DNA of 52,958 nt from a virus. Position 1 is the first letter of the stretch, and every line of letters starts with the position of its first letter. Below, piece by piece: positions 25,424 to 40,519 of the stretch. The notes under the pieces were generated by a model. That model made no database searches and had not been told where the DNA came from. It saw nothing but the letters and a program-made list of their open reading frames with translations. The stretch lies in the UHGV virus genome UHGV-0074814; one strand, given 5' to 3'. Made by a program: the position numbers and the translations under genes.

Positions 25424-26599
25424 ATGGATATAACTTGTTTAGAATGTGGCAATGTTCTTGACGACCCAACTGTAGCTTGCGATAAATGCGGTGCCACGCC
25501 TCATGTTGTAGTGCTGGGCAAACAATCGTACTTTCCTATTGGTGCTGTAACAGCAAATCTTGAAAAAAATGATTCAAGAGCATTTGATTATCGATTAGGT
25601 GAAGTTTGGGATCTAAAAAATGAAGTCACATCTGAATTCATAACCAGAATTGAGAAAAAATTTAGCCGAAAAAACAAATTTCATAACTTCCTAGACTCAG
25701 ATCACAACCCTTCATCCATTCCTACGATCCTAAAAAAATACATTAATAAAAATAATGAATTCATTGATTTATCTAGAGCTATAATAGAGAAGCTTAAACA
25801 TAATGCTAATAACGAATCGAGAGTTGCCCAACTTCAGGGGGGGAGCGTTGTTTTCATCCACTATAAGTCTACCGAACCAGAGGATTTGGGGAAACTTCTA
25901 ATCGTAATGGTTGATAAACAAAGCGCCTATGACTTTGATTCGGATAAGTTGACCCCAACAAGATTAAATCCAATTAATACCGATGCCTTACGGCAGGCTG
26001 CGATGTTCGATTTAACTTTATTCGAAGCCAGTTATCCAGAAAACAAGGGTGACTCATATGTACATTTCTTGCAAGGTAAATCTAAAAGCGATTTTTTCAA
26101 AGACTCATTAGGTTGCCGACATGATTCGGACAATAAAAGAAGCATTCAGCAATTATTCAGTGCTATAGATATTTTTGCTAGTAAAAACTCACTCGGTCGT
26201 GTACTGCGTGATACTATTGACAATGAAGTTAAATCCTTACTGGAAAAAAAATCAAAAGATAAACACGGAAATAAGTCCGTTAAGATAGAGGATATTTCAA
26301 AAATAATTGACTCATGCCTGACTGATTCACACAAATGTAAGGGAACGTTTGTCGATTTTGTTAATCTTAATGGTTTCCAGATTGACCCTCAATTTGAACC
26401 AACTCCTAAAGCAGCTGAAAGCGCGCTTACAATTGAAGTGGCAGATAACGACAATAATTTTAAGTTGAAAATAATGCGTGGAGCTATTGGAGACGAAAAG
26501 TCAAATAAGCCTGTAATTCTCACTGACAACAAATGCGAAATTGTGATAAAATTGAGTCAGGCAAATTATGATGAACTCAAAAGATATAGAGACAGCTAA
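25424..26599 (+). CDS. zinc-ribbon protein with NdpA/YejK-like (NA37 nucleoid-associated) domain; candidate defence component A
   Basis: N-terminal CLECG-N10-CDKCG zinc ribbon; central GGSVVFIHY...YVHFLQGKSKSDFFKDSLGC resembles YejK GGIVLFCHY...[23 protein letters not shown]; AT-rich relative to flanks. Confidence 0.5.
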   Translation: MDITCLECGNVLDDPTVACDKCGATPHVVVLGKQSYFPIGAVTANLEKNDSRAFDYRLGEVWDLKNEVTSEFITRIEKKFSRKNKFHNFLDSDHNPSSIPTILKKYINKNNEFIDLSRAIIEKLKHNANNESRVAQLQGGSVVFIHYKSTEPEDLGKLLIVMVDKQSAYDFDSDKLTPTRLNPINTDALRQAAMFDLTLFEASYPENKGDSYVHFLQGKSKSDFFKDSLGCRHDSDNKRSIQQLFSAIDIFASKNSLGRVLRDTIDNEVKSLLEKKSKDKHGNKSVKIEDISKIIDSCLTDSHKCKGTFVDFVNLNGFQIDPQFEPTPKAAESALTIEVADNDNNFKLKIMRGAIGDEKSNKPVILTDNKCEIVIKLSQANYDELKRYRDS

Positions 26600-26601
26600 T
26601 A

Positions 26602-27816
26602 ATGACAATTGCTGATGACTTATCAAGATTAGCGCAGATTATTAACGGAGCCTCAAGCAGAGTTGAGGGCTACTACACTGTCATAAGTCTTGAAGAAAGC
26701 ATTGTTATTGTAAATAGTTCTGAAATAATTAGACTGTTACAATCTATAGGTTATAAAAAGGCAACAACCTGCATCGAAAATAATGAAATTTGGCTAGATC
26801 GCCAAGCTTCATCTTGGGATGATGCTATAATTTATGAGAATGTTGAGTCTTTTTGGTCTAGAGTAAACACCCAAAACGCTCTTCCGAAAAATTATATCAT
26901 CGGAACGCCGTTAATACTCCCTACTTCTAAGAATGAAAGCATCGAAAAAATCCATATTTTCTTTATGTGGAAAGATATCCTTTCATTAATTTCTGATCAT
27001 CATAACAGTGACTGCTCTGTCTTATTTTTCACCAATGAAGACAAAAGTTATACAGTCGAACTCACGCATTTTTTACAATATAGCGAGATTAATCGCTTAT
27101 CGAACTCGTCTCTTAAATATGAAATTATAAAGGAGCTTCTCGACACAATAAAAATCAATGATTTACACAAAAGCGAGCGCAAGCTCGTTATACGCTCAGC
27201 CATAAACGAAGTATTTAAAGCAAATGGTACGTTCAATTTCTTTGACTTGCTTAACTCTACTGAACTCGTCAGGAAAAAATATGATGAACTATATGAGATT
27301 TACACAAAGAGGTTTTCTGTAAATAAAATTCTTAACGAACTCGATGAGAAAAATCTTGAGTTCACGAGTAAAATTAACGAATTCATATCATCTAATCAGA
27401 CAAAAGCATTGACTATTCCCGGTGCATTAATAGCAGCTGGTGGCTTAGTGAAGGCTAATGAAACAACCGAAGCAATATTGATTATCGCAGGACTTTGGAT
27501 GATAAAAAAAGTCAATTACATTTCTATTGAGATATTCAATGAAACATTCGACAACTTACGTTCTCGAGTGGAGTCCGCTTTCGATAAGTATTTAAAGTTT
27601 GAAGAAAATAAAGAAATCAAAGATAATGCAGATAGTATTAAGAGTAGCATTACAGGTTTGATTGATAAAGCTAAAAAAAGGATGAGAACTGTTAAATATC
27701 TCGCATCAGCCATGTTTTATGGAGGCCTTATTTACGTTGGATATAAACAGTTCCCAGTCTTTTTTGAAAAATCGGCAGTAAATCTATTTTATTTTTTATG
27801 CCATACTATAAGCTAA
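26602..27816 (+). CDS. membrane protein with two C-terminal TM helices; candidate defence component B (effector?)
   Basis: Starts 3 nt after the stop of the upstream gene; hydrophobic segments ALTIPGALIAAGGLV...AILIIAGLWMI and YLASAMFYGGLIYVGY. Confidence 0.5.
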   Translation: MTIADDLSRLAQIINGASSRVEGYYTVISLEESIVIVNSSEIIRLLQSIGYKKATTCIENNEIWLDRQASSWDDAIIYENVESFWSRVNTQNALPKNYIIGTPLILPTSKNESIEKIHIFFMWKDILSLISDHHNSDCSVLFFTNEDKSYTVELTHFLQYSEINRLSNSSLKYEIIKELLDTIKINDLHKSERKLVIRSAINEVFKANGTFNFFDLLNSTELVRKKYDELYEIYTKRFSVNKILNELDEKNLEFTSKINEFISSNQTKALTIPGALIAAGGLVKANETTEAILIIAGLWMIKKVNYISIEIFNETFDNLRSRVESAFDKYLKFEENKEIKDNADSIKSSITGLIDKAKKRMRTVKYLASAMFYGGLIYVGYKQFPVFFEKSAVNLFYFLCHTIS

Positions 27817-30373: not shown

Positions 30374-30696
30374 ACTTTCAGGCCCCTCTCATGTAACCAG
30401 TGGGCTGCACGCAACCTAGCGTTCTCCTCAGCGGCAAGCAGTGCGCGGATGATACCGACCGCTTCGCTGTCGTCGTCCTTCACTGCGGTATGAAGCGTGA
30501 TCCCCCGGGCCACGCCACGCTTTATCGTGATGACGCCTTTTTTCTCCAGTGCGCGAAGATGCTCCACCGCTGCATTCACTGAACGGTATCCCAGCATGGT
30601 TGCCACCTCCTGATTGGTTGGCGGGAAGCCACGTTCTTTCTGATAAGAAATCAGCATATCCAGCACCTGCTGCTGGCATTGAGTTAACGTCGTCAT
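30370..30696 (-). CDS. LexA DNA-binding-domain-only protein (no peptidase domain)
   Basis: LTQCQQQVLDMLISYQKERGFPPTNQEVATMLGYRSVNAAVEHLRALEKKGVI closely parallels LexA N-terminal winged helix. Confidence 0.55.
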   Translation of the reverse strand: MTTLTQCQQQVLDMLISYQKERGFPPTNQEVATMLGYRSVNAAVEHLRALEKKGVITIKRGVARGITLHTAVKDDDSEAVGIIRALLAAEENARLRAAHWLHERGLKV

Positions 30697-31346
30697 GCCG
30701 CCATCTCCCTGACCAGTTTTTCCGCCTGCTGGCGAACCTGCGCCAGAAACGCCTCACCACATGCCTCAAGTTCATCGCGCCCGATGTAGCTGATTGCCGG
30801 TCCCTTCCAGGTCTTGTCGAAAACAGCAATAGCACCAGCGAAGAAAGCGCCTGTCGGCACCTGCTTCTCATCTTTCGGGATAAACCAGGCAGGCAGTTCA
30901 AAACCAATACGCCCGCGAATAAAAGCAATATGATCTGCATCTTCCGGCCACCACACTTCGCTGGTGGCAGCTTTGATCAGGAAAACATAGCGCCCGCCTT
31001 TATCACGCATGGCACTGGCATGTTTCATGATGTAACGCATGCCGGTGATGTATTGCCCCTCATGCTGACTGGCGCGGCTGTATGGGGGATTACCAAAGGC
31101 AGCACCTTTAAGCTCCGCAAGACGTTCTGACCAGTCATGCGCCAGCGCGTTGTCTTCCGCAGTGTAATAAGCGGCACATTTGGCGTTATCACCATCAGTG
31201 AACAGATCCAGAACAAACGGGCCAAACAGGGTGTTAATTCCCCAGAAAATGTTATCCGGCGTGCGCCACTGATCGCCCACTTCCTTCAGTTCATGGGCTG
31301 GTTTGTTCCGCAGTTCCACCAGCGCCTGGCAATATTTATTACTCAT
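30693..31346 (-). CDS. phage DNA N6-adenine methyltransferase (Dam-like)
   Basis: GNPPYSRA catalytic motif; start set at the ATG overlapping the upstream stop (TAATG). Confidence 0.7.
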   Translation of the reverse strand: MSNKYCQALVELRNKPAHELKEVGDQWRTPDNIFWGINTLFGPFVLDLFTDGDNAKCAAYYTAEDNALAHDWSERLAELKGAAFGNPPYSRASQHEGQYITGMRYIMKHASAMRDKGGRYVFLIKAATSEVWWPEDADHIAFIRGRIGFELPAWFIPKDEKQVPTGAFFAGAIAVFDKTWKGPAISYIGRDELEACGEAFLAQVRQQAEKLVREMAA

Positions 31347-31840
31347 TAAGCCCCCACGAAATTCCCTGACAGATACCACTCTTCACCCGATGCAGCGCGC
31401 TTGCTGCTTTTCCGTAAGCACCGCTCACGACGTGCCAGAAAATTGTTTCGTTCTGGCTGGGAGTGGCTTTCACGGAATGCCGCCATCCACACGGTTGCAG
31501 CACGACGGTATAAGCCCCTTGACTCCAGTTCTTCAGCCTGGCGGGTCAGGCACAAAATCACCCGGGGATCGTTAGTGCCGACATAGAAATTGCGCACAGG
31601 TCTGGTTTCACGAACTGGTTGTGGTTCCGGCTCCTGCGCTCTCTCAGTCAGGCGTGGGAAATGTCTGCGTGTATCTCCTTCACAACGGTGAGCCACACGC
31701 CCACTCTGACGTAACTTGCTTGCTGACTGCAGAACGCGCTGCCGTGAGTAACCTGCAAAAGCATCCGCAATGTCTCCGGAAGTACAGCCCGGATGGGCTT
31801 CAATGAATTTCTGAACGTCATTCAAAAGACTCATGCTCAC
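31346..31840 (-). CDS. hypothetical replication-region protein
   Basis: 164 aa, translationally coupled between O-like gene and Dam gene. Confidence 0.4.
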   Translation of the reverse strand: MSMSLLNDVQKFIEAHPGCTSGDIADAFAGYSRQRVLQSASKLRQSGRVAHRCEGDTRRHFPRLTERAQEPEPQPVRETRPVRNFYVGTNDPRVILCLTRQAEELESRGLYRRAATVWMAAFRESHSQPERNNFLARRERCLRKSSKRAASGEEWYLSGNFVGA

Positions 31841-32778
31841 CCCCTGAATCCTGCCGGGATCTGGCTGTAGTCCACATTGTCGTAACTGGCTTTGAAGTAC
31901 GGGTCTTCGCGTTTTTCTGTGTACGTGCTGACGGACGGCGATAAGCGCAGGGAAAGCTCATCCCATTTTTCCCGCAGCTTCGACGGGCTGAGCACGTTAC
32001 GGCACCAGAACGGATCGCGGCTGACGCGGCTGTACATCTCGCAGATTTGTTTGTGAGTACGACCATCCTGCACACACATCAGGCGAATTTCGTTTGCCCA
32101 GGCTGTCCAGTTCGGTTCTTTGGGACGAACCACCTCGCCGTCACATTCGGCAGCCTGCTCGTACAGGGCGATGATTTTTTTCCAGAGCCACTGTGCGCAG
32201 GTCAAATCATCCTGCGTCCCCCACTGGCGCTTTTTAGGGCTGAATACAACCGCATCAGGATGGCGAGTTAAAAAATCCTGTTCAGCCGTCTGCGTGTCCG
32301 GTTGCGAAGCGTCCGGACGAGAAGTTTTTTTATCTGACGGATCATGTTTTGATTTTACTGACGGATCCCCGCCAGATTCTGACGGGTGAAAACCCGCTTT
32401 TTTGCCAGATTTCGACGCATCAAATTTTGACGGGTCAGATTTTGATGCGTCAGATTTTGACGGGTCAGAATCTGACAGTTGAGAAAATGCCGCTGCCTGA
32501 AGCTTCGCAACGTTAAGCTGATAAACATTCGACGCATTGCGGTTACCCTGGCGACGCGCCTTACGCGTTAACCAGCCTTCTGCTTCCAGCCGTGCGATAG
32601 CCGTTCTGACGGTACTCATCCCCGCGCCAATCTGACGGGCAATGGTTTTAATTGATGGCCAGCACACACCTTCGTCATTACTGAAATCAGCCAGGCGGGC
32701 CATAATTGCCACGCTGGATAACTTCATGCCTGATGCAGCGCAACCATCCCATACATAGCCGGTTAATTTAGTGCTCAT
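31837..32778 (-). CDS. replication initiation protein (O-like, N-terminal winged HTH) containing ori iterons
   Basis: N-terminal HTH SIKTIARQIGAGMSTVRTAIARLEAEGWL; internal peptide repeats encoded by 15-bp DNA iterons. Confidence 0.6.
   Translation of the reverse strand: MSTKLTGYVWDGCAASGMKLSSVAIMARLADFSNDEGVCWPSIKTIARQIGAGMSTVRTAIARLEAEGWLTRKARRQGNRNASNVYQLNVAKLQAAAFSQLSDSDPSKSDASKSDPSKFDASKSGKKAGFHPSESGGDPSVKSKHDPSDKKTSRPDASQPDTQTAEQDFLTRHPDAVVFSPKKRQWGTQDDLTCAQWLWKKIIALYEQAAECDGEVVRPKEPNWTAWANEIRLMCVQDGRTHKQICEMYSRVSRDPFWCRNVLSPSKLREKWDELSLRLSPSVSTYTEKREDPYFKASYDNVDYSQIPAGFRG
32351..32481. repeat. tandem iterons (~7 copies of 15-bp unit AGATTTTGACGGGTC and variants); putative origin of replication
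   Basis: Read directly: gattttactgacgg / agattctgacgggtg / agatttcgacgcatc / aaattttgacgggtc / agattttgatgcgtc / agattttgacgggtc / agaatctgacagttg. Confidence 0.6.
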
Positions 32779-32787
32779 GACCGACCT

Positions 32788-33126
32788 CTATTTCCCTGAA
32801 TTTACGACGAAACTGTTCGAGCGGACTGAAGCATTCATGCTCATAACCTTCGCGGAGGTAGATAACCCGTTGTGTTTCCGGCTCCCAACGAATGACTCTG
32901 ACGGGCACTCCGTAGTGATCTTTGAACCAGCGGTTAACTTGTCGCAAAGGACTGTCTCCTTCTGCCGGTTGAAATCACCCACAGCCCACTCTGCAAAGCT
33001 GTGGGTTACAATTTCCCTGTCACCTGGTACATTCACTGCATAGCAATATTCCACCTTCGCTTTTCCACCCGGTACCGGAAGCGCAATCAGTTGCGAGCGA
33101 CGGTAGTGTGTTGTTAAACTGTTCAT
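32788..33126 (-). CDS. hypothetical early protein (YmfM-like position)
   Basis: 112 aa, start overlaps stop of upstream gene. Confidence 0.35.
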
Positions 33127-33680
33127 GCGTTAGTTTCTCCACAACCAGAAGCAATCGACGCCACGACGCCCGGAGCTGCACACTCGCGGGCGTCATTACT
33201 TTCTGAAATGCAAAAAATTTTGTAGACAAGTGCTGCATGCTCCTGCAGCTTCGAAATTGAGAGATACAGCTCGTCGTTAATTGCTGTCTTCTCATGCGGT
33301 TCCACTACACCGTCTTCGATTGCTGAACGAATCTGTTTTGAATAACTGCCGATCTGTTCAATGACTTCCAGCAGACGCTGGTTAATATCGGCGTTGTCCA
33401 CATCCTCGACGTCAGGAAGAGACACAAAGACGCCATTTGCAGACTGCGCCACAGCATCAGCAATGAAGTGAGTGCCACCAGCACGCTGTAAAACCATTGC
33501 CCATCCCAGCGGGAAAATCTGATCGCCATCTGCACGAAGGCGGTTGAATAAAGCGTTTTCTGTTACATCGAGCCAGTCAGCCGCTTCAGCGTAACCACCC
33601 GGCAACGCCGCGATAGTTTTTCTGACAGCTTTCACGTACCACTCAGGCTGTTTTTCTATTTTCCAGTGATGCTTACCCAC
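33123..33680 (-). CDS. hypothetical early regulatory protein (CII/YdaT-like position)
   Basis: 185 aa immediately downstream of cro-like gene. Confidence 0.35.
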
Positions 33681-33933
33681 GGTTCACCTCCTGTTCCTGT
33701 GGTTTAAACCCATTCTGATTTTGGCTAGATTGAAAACGTGCCGGATAAAGAATCTGCATTTCGCTGACTTCACCCTTAAAAAAATTGGCTAAACGTTCTG
33801 CAAGCTCGATAGATGGAATCTGCTCCAGCCTCTCAATACGACTCAACGTCGCTGGATTGACTTGAACACCCGCAGCAACATGCTGCAAAGTGAAACCATG
33901 CGCCTTACGCACATTTCGTAATGGTGATTGCAT
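33673..33933 (-). CDS. Cro-like HTH (XRE family) repressor
   Basis: 86 aa; HTH VAAGVQVNPATLSRIERLEQIP; divergent from CI gene. Confidence 0.7.
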   Translation of the reverse strand: MQSPLRNVRKAHGFTLQHVAAGVQVNPATLSRIERLEQIPSIELAERLANFFKGEVSEMQILYPARFQSSQNQNGFKPQEQEVNRG

Positions 33934-34030
33934 ATACCCTCCAAATATTGCGCGTTATGCATGTTATTTCACGCAATTATTTTGCGCAAGTTGATTTGCT
34001 TATCACGCAATAAAGAAATGTAATAAACGC
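33934..34030. promoter_or_regulatory. OR-like divergent promoter/operator region between cro-like and cI-like genes
   Basis: Four TTGCGC/CACGCAAT motifs at 33948, 33970, 33982, 34004 including palindromic TTGCGCAA. Confidence 0.5.
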
Positions 34031-34723
34031 ATGAACATAGGAAACCGAGTCAGACAACTTCGCCAAGCGAAGAACATGAAAATCGCCGATCTCGCTGAAG
34101 CAATAGGAGTAGATGCGGCGAACATCTCGCGCTTAGAAACGGGTAAGCAAAAACAATTTACCGAACAAACACTGAGTAATATTGCCAAGAGCTTAGGTGT
34201 TGATATTGCTGATCTCTTTACCTCTGCCCTCAAAAGTAATACTGTATATAAAAACAGTAATAATGAGGATGTTGCGCAGGTGAAGGATGTGTTCCGTATT
34301 GAAATGCTGGATATCAGTGCCAGTGCGGGAAATGGCCTTATCCAGGGCGGTGATGTCATTGATGTGATTCATGCCATCGAATACAGAACTGATAATGCTG
34401 TATCAATGTTCGGCGGACGACCAGCCAATCACATCAAAGTTATCAACGTTCGTGGGGACAGTATGTGTCCAACCATTGAGCCAGGAGATCTCATCTTCGT
34501 TGATGTCAGCATCAATCAGTTTGATGGTGATGGTATATATGTCTTTGGTTTTGATGACAAAATATACGTTAAAAGACTTCAAATGATTCCTGACAAACTG
34601 CTGGTGATTTCTGATAACCAGATTTACCGTGAATGGGGAATTACTAGCGAAAACGAACACCGATTCATGGTCTTTGGAAAGGTCTTAATCAGTCAGTCGC
34701 AAACCCTTAAGAGACATAATTAA
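34031..34723 (+). CDS. CI-like repressor (HTH plus S24 LexA-like peptidase domain)
   Basis: N-terminal HTH IADLAEAIGVDAANISRLETGKQ; C-terminal VRGDSMCPTIEPGDLIFVD and K in KRLQ (Ser/Lys dyad). Confidence 0.8.
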   Translation: MNIGNRVRQLRQAKNMKIADLAEAIGVDAANISRLETGKQKQFTEQTLSNIAKSLGVDIADLFTSALKSNTVYKNSNNEDVAQVKDVFRIEMLDISASAGNGLIQGGDVIDVIHAIEYRTDNAVSMFGGRPANHIKVINVRGDSMCPTIEPGDLIFVDVSINQFDGDGIYVFGFDDKIYVKRLQMIPDKLLVISDNQIYREWGITSENEHRFMVFGKVLISQSQTLKRHN

Positions 34724-39193: not shown

Positions 39194-39403
39194 GCGTTTA
39201 AGTTTCTCAATCCCACATTAATTATCTCATCACACATGTAACAGGCCAAACAGACTGCTCTGAGCGACGAACCGTTGTTGACCAGTAACGCCATAGAGTA
39301 TATTCAGTAAGTGTTCCAATGTATATAAGAAATGCGCTGTGTATATTTTTAATTCAAAATAGTTTGAAGCACAATCATGAAACAGATTCTTATGAATACA
39401 AAA

Positions 39404-40519
39404 TTAAATTAAATCAAATAGCCCATGTTCATCTATAGCCTTTGAACTAATTAAGTTCGCGGCTTCTATGTCATTGTCACTTGCCTCAGAAATAAGGAAA
39501 AATGAATCAACATGATTTTGCAAAATAATTTCCTTATACTTCTTGAGCCATTGTAATTTACCTGTAGTGAACAATACTTTACGCGGTAGCAAAATACGGC
39601 TAAAAACTGATGGAAGATACTCACTTCTATTAAATGGAATAAAAGGGTCGCCTAAAGAAAGAATAGTTAGACGATTAAATTCACCGTGCGAATTCAATTT
39701 TTCAGCTGATTTGGCTATACCACTTGGTAAAAAAACACCTGTCTTGATACCGTTGCGTAAAGCAACAACAGCCATCATTTTATCAAAGGCAGTACCTCCA
39801 AATAATAAGGAATATCCTTTTTTAACAGAAAGATCAATAGTATCAAGAACAACTTGTTTTTCTATATCACTTGGTGACGTGCTCGAAATTATCGAAAGAT
39901 CAAAATCAGTAAATAACTGCCCAGTATAATAAAGATTTTTGCCGGTGAAAGTTGACAACTTTAAAGGAAACATTTTATCATCATGCTTAATTTCAGATAC
40001 ATTAAGATCTGTTAAGGATGGATAGTTAAAGTTTGGTGAGGCTTTTCCGTGTTTATTATTTTTTGATGCCTGCGGACTAAAAACTAGAATTTCATTTTTA
40101 TTATTACACAGGTAATCCTGTATCATTTTTTTTACAATATCCCAATCAAGACCACCGTGACCACAACCTAAAGCTGGCAGGGTGATTGTTTTTCCATGTT
40201 TATTATCCAAATATTTCGAGAGCCAATGCAGTCCTTTTTCGATATATTCGTACTTAGACTTATTTCTCCAATGATCCTTGGTGGGAAAGTTTATGATTTC
40301 TATTTCCTTACCATACGTATCATTACCTTTCCAAACAGCTGGTCTTCCTGGAGATATTTCTCCTTTTTTACACAGCAATACGTATTCATTATACATTTCA
40401 GGAAACTTATTCTTAAAAGCAAAAGCAACCCCTGCCCCCATTACACCAACACAATTAACTGTATTAATTCTAATGTCAGCAGCATAATCGAAAAAATCAC
40501 CATCAACATATCTAATCAT
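39404..40519 (-). CDS. macro-domain protein (DarG/TARG1-like) with C-terminal Rossmann-like domain; candidate antitoxin
   Basis: GDFFDYAADIRINTVNCVGVMGAGVAFAFKNKFPEMY and ALGCGHGGLDW macro motifs; start set at ATG with SD AAGGAGG (ORF track extends to 40645); AT-rich. Confidence 0.55.
   Translation of the reverse strand: MIRYVDGDFFDYAADIRINTVNCVGVMGAGVAFAFKNKFPEMYNEYVLLCKKGEISPGRPAVWKGNDTYGKEIEIINFPTKDHWRNKSKYEYIEKGLHWLSKYLDNKHGKTITLPALGCGHGGLDWDIVKKMIQDYLCNNKNEILVFSPQASKNNKHGKASPNFNYPSLTDLNVSEIKHDDKMFPLKLSTFTGKNLYYTGQLFTDFDLSIISSTSPSDIEKQVVLDTIDLSVKKGYSLLFGGTAFDKMMAVVALRNGIKTGVFLPSGIAKSAEKLNSHGEFNRLTILSLGDPFIPFNRSEYLPSVFSRILLPRKVLFTTGKLQWLKKYKEIILQNHVDSFFLISEASDNDIEAANLISSKAIDEHGLFDLI

Follow-up and report, generated by a model that had tools for sequence, protein, structure and literature searches.

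We have analyzed a replication initiator gene, and the short repeats that lie inside it, in a stretch of viral DNA of 52,958 nucleotides (UHGV virus genome UHGV-0074814); the whole of this stretch, about 53 kb, is referred to below as the window. The gene is part of a lambdoid early-right operon. Followed downstream along the minus strand, the region begins with the repressor, itself encoded on the opposite strand, and continues with cro, a cII-like gene and two small open reading frames (ORFs) to the initiator gene; after it come genes for a PerC-like protein, Dam, a LexA-like protein, RusA, a regulator, HNH and Q, and finally the lysis genes. A sequence-only reading of this DNA had proposed that the initiator gene is O-like and that it holds seven tandem 15-bp iterons, in the manner of the lambda origin. 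A summary of the features is presented in Table 1, in which the units are laid out in the initiator gene's own frame on the minus strand. The repeated segment falls between the codons of an N-terminal winged-helix domain and those of a C-terminal domain of the lambda O type, and is considered here as a candidate replication origin.

Table 1. Features of the initiator gene, its repeats and the genes downstream (positions are those of the window; nt, nucleotides; aa, amino acids).
Feature	Position	Strand	Sequence	Remarks
O-like replication initiator gene, 313 aa	31837-32778	-		ORF; phrog_391; lambda O alignment
N-terminal winged-helix domain, codons 1-100	32479-32778	-		presumed origin-binding module; Pfam HTH_36
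U1	32461-32475	-	TCAGATTCTGACCCG	15-nt unit, contiguous; candidate iteron
U2	32446-32460	-	TCAAAATCTGACGCA	15-nt unit, contiguous; candidate iteron
U3	32431-32445	-	TCAAAATCTGACCCG	15-nt unit, contiguous; candidate iteron
U4	32416-32430	-	TCAAAATTTGATGCG	15-nt unit, contiguous; candidate iteron
U5	32401-32415	-	TCGAAATCTGGCAAA	15-nt unit, contiguous; degenerate
Spacer, 15 nt	32386-32400	-	AAAGCGGGTTTTCAC	between U5 and U6
U6, isolated unit	32371-32385	-	CCGTCAGAATCTGGC	contains the palindrome TCAGAATCTGG
G1, 24-nt direct repeat	32344-32367	-	GATCCGTCAG, then A-rich run	
G2, 24-nt direct repeat	32320-32343	-	GATCCGTCAG, then A-rich run	
G1+G2 block	32320-32367	-		candidate DNA-unwinding element with two Dam (GATC) sites; GC content, stability, GATC conservation
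Lambda-O-type C-terminal domain, codons ~154-313	31837-32319	-		tblastn/BLASTP to lambda O and phi80 gp15
PerC-like gene, 164 aa	31346-31840	-		Pfam PerC, E = 7.9e-9; phrog_1324; overlaps the initiator stop by 4 nt
Adenine methyltransferase (Dam) gene	30693-31379	-		second gene downstream of the initiator in the window

The initiator gene and its repeats

The initiator protein as a whole matches PHROG 391, 'replication initiation O-like', with an expected value (E) of 2.9e-135. The proposal of an O-like replication gene is borne out by its C-terminal domain (C-domain), which is a true relative of the P-interacting part of lambda O: BLASTP aligns aa 70-277 with aa 78-270 of lambda O at 31% identity (E = 3e-26), tblastn of the initiator matches lambda 39197-39496 at 39% identity, and the C-domain also aligns with phi80 gp15 (E = 4e-25). 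Neither Foldseek with the AlphaFold model nor a sequence search of the PDB returned any match for this domain. The N-terminal domain (N-domain) matches Pfam HTH_36 over aa 23-70 (E = 7.4e-11) and displays weak MarR-like matches, both by sequence in the PDB search and by fold in Foldseek with the AlphaFold model. The lambda-type Phage_rep_O family (PF04492) is absent from the initiator in a Pfam scan at E <= 0.01, which returned HTH_36, GntR, HTH_29 and similar families instead. The label 'primosomal protein I/DnaT', found in some phage records, could not be substantiated by the PDB and Foldseek searches.

The gene is 98-99.8% identical to genes of the phages Kati, SfIV and SfII that are described as 'replication protein', 'primosomal protein' or 'O protein family'. 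The records of these phages mark no origin, and the SfIV paper has no discussion of one. In an AlphaFold2 model built with 28 homologues, the C-domain (aa 162-279) has predicted local distance difference test scores (pLDDT) of 74-96, the N-domain has moderate scores, and aa 102-160 score below 50. The low-scoring stretch is exactly the segment encoded by 32320-32475, which places the repeats in the codons of a predicted disordered linker between the two domains. A disordered peptide of this kind would leave the underlying DNA free to obey a cis-acting constraint.

Tandem Repeats Finder, applied to the plus strand, reports a single array at 32406-32469, either with a period of 15 (4.3 copies, 81% matches) or with a period of 30 (2.1 copies, 88% matches). 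When up to 3 mismatches are allowed, the consensus CAGATTTTGACGGGT is matched 8 times in the window as against 1.63 expected by chance, and none of 100 shuffled sequences reached 8; six of the matches lie in 32373-32474, and no second cluster of the motif is found anywhere in the window. Every unit is dyad-symmetric within itself (TCAGA-W-TCTGA, equivalently GTCA-N5-TGAC, with inverted-repeat arms 84-92% complementary), so that the array forms a lattice of half-sites in alternating orientation. The repeats occupy nt 303-407 of the gene, between the HTH_36 N-domain codons and the lambda-O-like C-domain codons.

The seven tandem 15-bp iterons proposed at 32351-32481 are recovered in part: seven TGACGG-like cores do lie in that interval, but only five are in 15-bp register, and the interval leaves out the related copy G2. 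The peptide repeat SDSDPSKSDASKSDPSKFDASKS said to be encoded by the repeats was found as described; it is read from the minus strand and spans roughly aa 102-124 of the ORF. Since the period is exactly 15 nt, or five codons, the array can grow or shrink without breaking the reading frame. Copy number is polymorphic and always in frame; E. coli strain 298, for example, has three extra units in a gene that is otherwise about 98% identical.

U6, G1 and G2 carry three phased copies of CCGTCAG, spaced 21 and 24 nt, and the two exact copies of GATCCGTCAG in the window both lie in the G1/G2 block. The GC minimum of the region (27.5%) falls at 32320-32359. By nearest-neighbour energy this is also the least stable 40-bp segment of the gene, at -46.2 compared with a gene mean of -57.0 (standard deviation 3.2). 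Along the direction of transcription the order is N-domain codons, iterons, AT-rich block and C-domain codons, which is the order in lambda.

Conservation and co-inheritance of the repeats

The relatives were drawn from a scan of one genome per species, which gave 80 loci with N-domains 56-99% identical, in hosts ranging from Escherichia/Shigella, Citrobacter, Kosakonia, Yersinia, Pantoea, Rahnella and Providencia to Gilliamella. A first homologue search, with a 101-aa N-domain query, yielded mainly fragments of truncated or fused genes, which gave little basis for comparison at the DNA level. All full-length copies with detectable repeats have in-frame 15-nt units, the first of which begins at gene nt 297-327, and the number of units by a conservative count ranges from 2 to 8 (about 70 species-level loci).

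Conservation of a repeated coding segment could in principle be a matter of the protein alone: the repeats would then encode a low-complexity, flexible linker rich in Ser, Asp and Lys that arose by replication slippage, and the DNA would have no role in cis. The segment does encode a predicted disordered linker, its copy number varies in frame, and the pentapeptide SD[AP]SK recurs in many homologues. The distribution of substitutions is of another kind. Among the pooled units (n = 278, from 68 non-redundant loci), TCARAWTCTGA at positions 1-11 is conserved and positions 12-15 are poorly conserved. The third codon positions 3 and 9 hold 1.73 and 1.52 bits (2.0 and 1.89 bits in the per-locus consensus), while the most variable positions, 12-15, comprise a whole codon together with one third position, the fifth codon being free to encode A, P, T, G, R, V or H. 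An internal control is provided by the N-domain of these genes: fourfold sites of its conserved residues hold about 0.05-0.6 bits and all of its third positions 0.59 bits on average, so that its synonymous sites are saturated across the genera in which those of the units are fixed. Serine codon 1 of the unit is TCA in 256 of 267 cases and serine codon 3 is TCT in 198 of 219, as compared with 10% TCA and 9% TCT among the serine codons of the N-domain. Conservation thus tracks a contiguous 11-bp palindrome and not a codon pattern.

The DNA motif also outlasts changes in the peptide. In distant relatives (N-domains 58-69% identical) the peptide is SERSD or SEHSD instead of SDPSK, while the DNA is nearly unchanged, TCAGATTCTGAA. 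In phiP27 (NC_003356, gene L17) a 1-nt deletion in the spacer shifts TCAGAATCTGG into another frame, where it encodes TLQNLD and not PSESG; the motif survives this shift, and a 22-nt insertion brings the frame back. The spacer itself (32386-32400) is conserved only in part across the family. Beyond it, some 50 nt after the array are almost invariant, synonymous sites included, in 67 loci (..yCAGAATCTGG nGG GAT CCG TCA GTA AAT TCA AAA CAn GAT CCa TCA G..), and U6 is part of this conservation. The codon for aspartate changes with its DNA context: in the block after the array it is GAT in 67 of 67 loci, which creates a GATC site, whereas in the tandem units GAC accounts for 82%. Of the 67 loci, 56 have two GATC sites, nearly always 24 nt apart, and in 63 of 70 relatives the least stable segment of the gene begins no more than 20 nt from the first of them.

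Other sources of constraint on this DNA were looked for as well. No alternative frame is consistently open across the region, as an overlapping gene would require, the best one being open in 35 of 67 loci. An Rfam scan of 31000-34200 gave no family at threshold, and a sub-threshold match to a eukaryotic microRNA hairpin was caused by the palindromic repeat. A scan of 31300-34100 found no sigma-70-like promoter. A terminator-like hairpin on the plus strand (antisense) at 32383-32396, over the spacer region, is not conserved in relatives and was discarded. The locked codons, the changed peptides and the frame-shifted copy, together with the lack of an alternative frame, an Rfam family or a promoter, lead us to reject a purely peptide-level explanation, to which we leave a very small probability.

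Comparison with mosaic relatives suggests what the conserved DNA is tied to. Citrobacter phage phiNP shares 32300-32777, that is the N-domain and the repeats, at 82.7% nt identity and has the same 15-bp units, but its C-domain is of a different type, Phg_2220_C. The reverse is seen in mEp460_4F5, which shares the C-domain (31837-32333, 96.8% identity) and has an unrelated N-terminal half; at the equivalent position it carries a different, 23-bp repeat followed by an AT-rich tract of its own. The junction of exchange with other modules lies at 32300-32333, directly after G2, which indicates that N-domain, repeats and AT-rich block travel as one module. In Rac-like relatives, whose N-domains are about 57% identical, the core of the 15-nt units is shifted to TTGAC-nn-GTCAA, and the pair of GATCCGTCAG copies is retained. 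Other repeats are found at the equivalent place beside the unrelated N-domains of mEp460, lambda and phi80, a pattern that supports a lambda-like origin as the probable nature of the segment. That iterons are specific to the type of N-domain has also been stated as a rule for lambda, P22 and L (PMC8022706).

The candidate origin and its possible functions

On these grounds we consider that 32320-32475 probably serves as origin of replication for this lambdoid prophage, which is of the SfII/SfIV/Kati type, and that the units are iterons for the phage initiator; we would put the probability at roughly 0.78. In the mechanism that we propose, the winged-helix N-domain would bind the TCAGA/TCTGA half-sites, probably as dimers. 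These half-sites form palindromes of 11-13 bp every 15 bp in U1-U5, with further copies at U6, G1 and G2. The resulting nucleoprotein complex would destabilise the adjoining 48-bp AT-rich G1/G2 block with its two GATC sites, and the lambda-O-type C-domain would then recruit the helicase machinery of the host.

The iterons-within-O arrangement that had been proposed by analogy with lambda agrees with what was found at the sequence level: position, dyad symmetry, AT-rich side, conservation as DNA and co-segregation with the N-domain are all as expected. In lambda, too, the origin lies inside the initiator gene, with repeats between N- and C-domain codons (the annotated iterons are at gene nt 349-433), the repeats are dyad-symmetric, an AT-rich region follows downstream and there is no DnaA box; the homology of the C-domains has been given above. 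The differences are that lambda has four 18-bp iterons spaced 20-24 bp, where the window has head-to-tail 15-bp units and dispersed copies, and that the window has an HTH_36 N-domain, a PerC-like gene in the place of P and two invariant GATC sites in the AT-rich block. The array has every sequence-level feature of a lambda-type origin that was tested, and the system lacks two features of lambda proper, the Phage_rep_O N-domain and the P partner gene.

Other lambdoid phages offer similar comparisons. Gene 15 of phi80, whose C-domain is homologous, has four annotated gp15 sites (gene nt 365-441) followed by AT-rich DNA, and gene 18 of P22 and of L each has its own type of repeat inside an O-like gene (PMC8022706). 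The repeats differ from those of the window in sequence and in spacing or length (21 bp in phi80, 11-bp repeats in L), and phi80, P22 and L encode a P-like or DnaB-like partner. The Stx phages 933W and 'P27' have six-iteron origins in which the number of iterons varies inside the O gene and lengthens the protein, and synonymous mutations in these iterons abolish plasmid establishment (PMC7466680). Unlike the window they have lambda-type iterons, ATCCCTCAAAACGAGGGA, and lambda-type O and P. The 'P27' of this literature was considered as a source of binding data for the present initiator family and set aside; it is lambda-type and is not the sequenced phiP27, whose L17 gene belongs to the initiator family of the window.

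Iteron plasmids (pSC101, R6K, RK2, P1 oriR) resemble the window in having repeated initiator sites beside an AT-rich unwinding element. GATC sites occur in the unwinding region of P1 oriR and of oriC. These plasmids differ in their Rep_3/WH1-WH2 initiators and in their iterons, which are about 17-22 bp long, near helical phase, intergenic and accompanied by DnaA boxes. No plasmid-type Rep family appeared in the Pfam scan of the initiator, and none of these iteron and DnaA-box features holds for the window, where the period is 15 bp and the array lies inside a gene.

As a separate observation, lambda (L088 in our set of loci, 670-700) and phi80 (L089, 8775-8810) have a block in common, TCGTCnGAGAATTCTGrCGAATCCTCTGAC, which in both is found on the right-hand side of the AT-rich region. 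A similar sequence in the window, CCGTCAGAATCTGGCGGGGATCCGTCAG (32358-32385, U6 and the start of G1), precedes the AT-rich block. The shared sequence could be an ancient common origin element or a coincidence.

A protein that binds these units is already on record. The cryptic prophage CPS-53 of E. coli K-12 contains yfdO, a truncated copy of the initiator gene that has lost codons 1-79, and its origin region is identical to the window at 187 of 190 positions. In a study of 2022, the LysR-type regulator SrsR (YgfI) has its top peak of the K-12 genome by genomic systematic evolution of ligands by exponential enrichment (gSELEX) in the 'yfdO/yfdP spacer', with an intensity of 1206 against at most 288 elsewhere, and its DNase I footprint there covers 66 bp with four boxes, TCAaATTTTGa, TCAGATTTTGa (twice) and TCAGAgTcTGa (PMC9181523). 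The mRNA of yfdONMLK goes down on loss of SrsR and up on its overexpression, and the study treats the site as a promoter-proximal operator, with mention of neither iterons nor an origin (PMC9181523). The four footprinted boxes are units U4-U1, at 32420-32430, 32435-32445, 32450-32460 and 32465-32475 of the window; when the matches to the 11-bp SrsR box TCAGATTTTGC are compared between the window and K-12, three agree in full and one has a single base difference. The units are therefore protein-binding sites, proven in vitro for a host factor on K-12 DNA. The initiator gene is truncated in CPS-53, where the origin would be a fossil, and intact in the window.

SrsR binding makes a host-controlled regulatory array a real rival, and it also raises the possibility that the host controls a phage origin. 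According to the rival explanation, the array is primarily a host-factor element and no origin: SrsR boxes would activate a weak internal promoter for downstream genes (the C-terminal part of O, the PerC-like gene, Dam and others) or would silence the prophage. The strength of the peak, the identity of the footprinted boxes to the units and the response of yfdONMLK mRNA to SrsR dosage all speak for it, as does a TAAAAT hexamer in G1. On the other hand, the type of repeat follows the phage's own class of N-domain and not the host. Phages of Providencia, Proteus, Gilliamella, Pantoea and Rahnella retain the array motif, and a search for SrsR orthologues gave none from these genera; those that it did give came from Escherichia, Citrobacter, Kosakonia, Yersinia, Hafnia and Sodalis. 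The search was word-seeded, few of its matches carry names, and its outcome is indicative only. The empty promoter scan also counts against it, and a promoter would leave the two invariant GATC sites, the three phased CCGTCAG copies and the stability minimum unexplained. We therefore regard a purely host-regulatory array as unlikely. Regulation by SrsR and an origin function are not mutually exclusive.

Several points weigh against an origin. The one demonstrated binder of the units is the host regulator SrsR, and in the searchable literature we found no experiment on initiator or origin activity for this family. A motif search found no DnaA box in the region, although lambda likewise has none. 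Pfam and PHROG scans of the window found no gene for P, DnaC or DnaB in the interval from the initiator gene to Q; helicase loading is thus a step with no identified player, and the weakest one of the proposed mechanism. Finally, the contiguous 15-bp spacing corresponds to 1.43 helical turns, unlike the 20-24 bp of lambda, phi80 or plasmid iterons, and no characterised lambdoid origin has such a spacing. This atypical spacing suggests that the near-invariant U6, G1 and G2 may be the essential sites and the tandem array auxiliary or regulatory.

The same spacing could be taken to mean that the array is a site of another kind for the N-domain, acting in autoregulation of the early operon, in copy-number control (handcuffing) or in incompatibility, and that initiation takes place elsewhere. 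The variability of the tandem part, from 2 to 8 units, is in keeping with this, and in Stx phages only some iterons are strongly bound, though the others are still required (PMC7466680). The array is, however, always contiguous with the stability minimum and the near-invariant block, the whole unit moves with the N-domain as one module, and the window has no other cluster of the motif. We consider such a displaced initiation site improbable, somewhat more so than the host-regulatory array.

If 32320-32475 is an origin, SrsR might compete or cooperate with the initiator on the 15-bp lattice in the intact prophages of this family, present in about a third of complete E. coli genomes, such that host stress would gate prophage replication or origin-proximal transcription; the variable tandem units would then be regulatory, and the core origin would consist of the three invariant CCGTCAG copies and the two Dam sites. 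This scheme is speculative, and we think it more likely wrong than right, though less unlikely than either rival above. Were it true, SrsR, a stationary-phase regulator of E. coli, would have a phage origin of replication as its strongest target in the genome.

The replication module was matched in 2006 of 5426 complete E. coli genomes and is present in Shigella serotype-converting phages and in the CPS-53 remnant of K-12; it is one of the commonest replication modules in E. coli prophages. The gene is annotated only as 'helix-turn-helix domain-containing protein', and no origin is marked. What is already known is that the family is loosely labelled 'replication protein O' and that the repeats have been published as SrsR boxes; the literature searched contained no description of the repeats as an origin. 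An origin would explain why a coding stretch is frozen at synonymous sites, and would make the segment a clean natural case of dual coding, in which one piece of DNA both encodes a peptide linker and acts as an origin. The strongest SrsR site of K-12 could then be re-read as a fossil phage origin. The gene with its repeats would also be a compact candidate mini-replicon, with an initiator specificity different from that of lambda.

Neighbouring genes and minor observations

The PerC-like gene downstream of the initiator occupies the slot of lambda P. The same 4-nt overlap, and with it the translational coupling of the two genes, is found in 24 loci, across differing types of initiator C-domain; the N-terminal 105 aa of the PerC-like protein fall in a PHROG whose function is unknown. 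Loader genes are found in some relatives: a lambda-P-like gene is present in 3 loci, a DnaC-like gene in L053, L086 and the Rac-like loci, and both DnaC and DnaB in phiP27. For the window, either host DnaC serves as the loader or the 164-aa PerC-like protein has an unrecognised role, which raises the question of how an O-type initiator loads helicase when it has no P-type partner.

In 31 of about 75 loci (L001-L083), the gene immediately downstream of the initiator encodes an adenine methyltransferase (Dam PF05869 or MT-A70). A functional link between the phage Dam and the GATC-bearing block of the candidate origin is possible.

Two circular E. coli records of phage size that are filed as plasmids, L091 (NZ_CP081716.1, 37.7 kb) and L092 (CP085522.1, 41.5 kb), carry the replication module; neither is listed with a plasmid replicon type. 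These records probably represent phage genomes in excised or episomal form, and give a weak hint of autonomous replication. The other matches in the plasmid database are mostly prophages in large replicons or mis-filed chromosomes.

Within the initiator gene there is a recurrent breakpoint, exact to the nucleotide, at 32544/32545 (codon 78/79), seen in L057, L083 and L084. Fusions of the e14 YmfN type keep the gene as far as ...CAGGGT and continue with terminase, and yfdO of K-12 CPS-53 starts at exactly the base that follows, with AACCGCAATG. The match also ends near residue 79 in many further proteins that are truncated or fused, such as 138-aa 'RusA' fusions. The pattern points to a recombination hot spot or a single ancestral rearrangement.

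Just upstream of the initiator gene, two minus-strand ORFs (32768-32947 and 32788-33126) overlap by 160 nt in different frames. Both are supported by families, one by DUF4222 (E = 8.6e-19) and the other by phrog_1170 (E = 7.6e-70); the longer ORF is annotated in phage records and DUF4222 in RefSeq E. coli. Between Q and the lysis genes, at 25424-27816 on the plus strand, are two large genes that run counter to the phage operons on either side. One of them encodes a 'nucleoid associated protein' (phrog_3767), the other is a member of phrog_5023, whose function is unknown, and the pair looks like a moron insertion.

Three assemblies labelled Vagococcus sp., Chryseobacterium sp. and Martelella alba (L013, L035 and L042) carry the initiator gene with 81-87% protein identity, and the 'Martelella alba' assembly also has an SrsR orthologue. 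These assemblies are likely to be contaminated or mislabelled.

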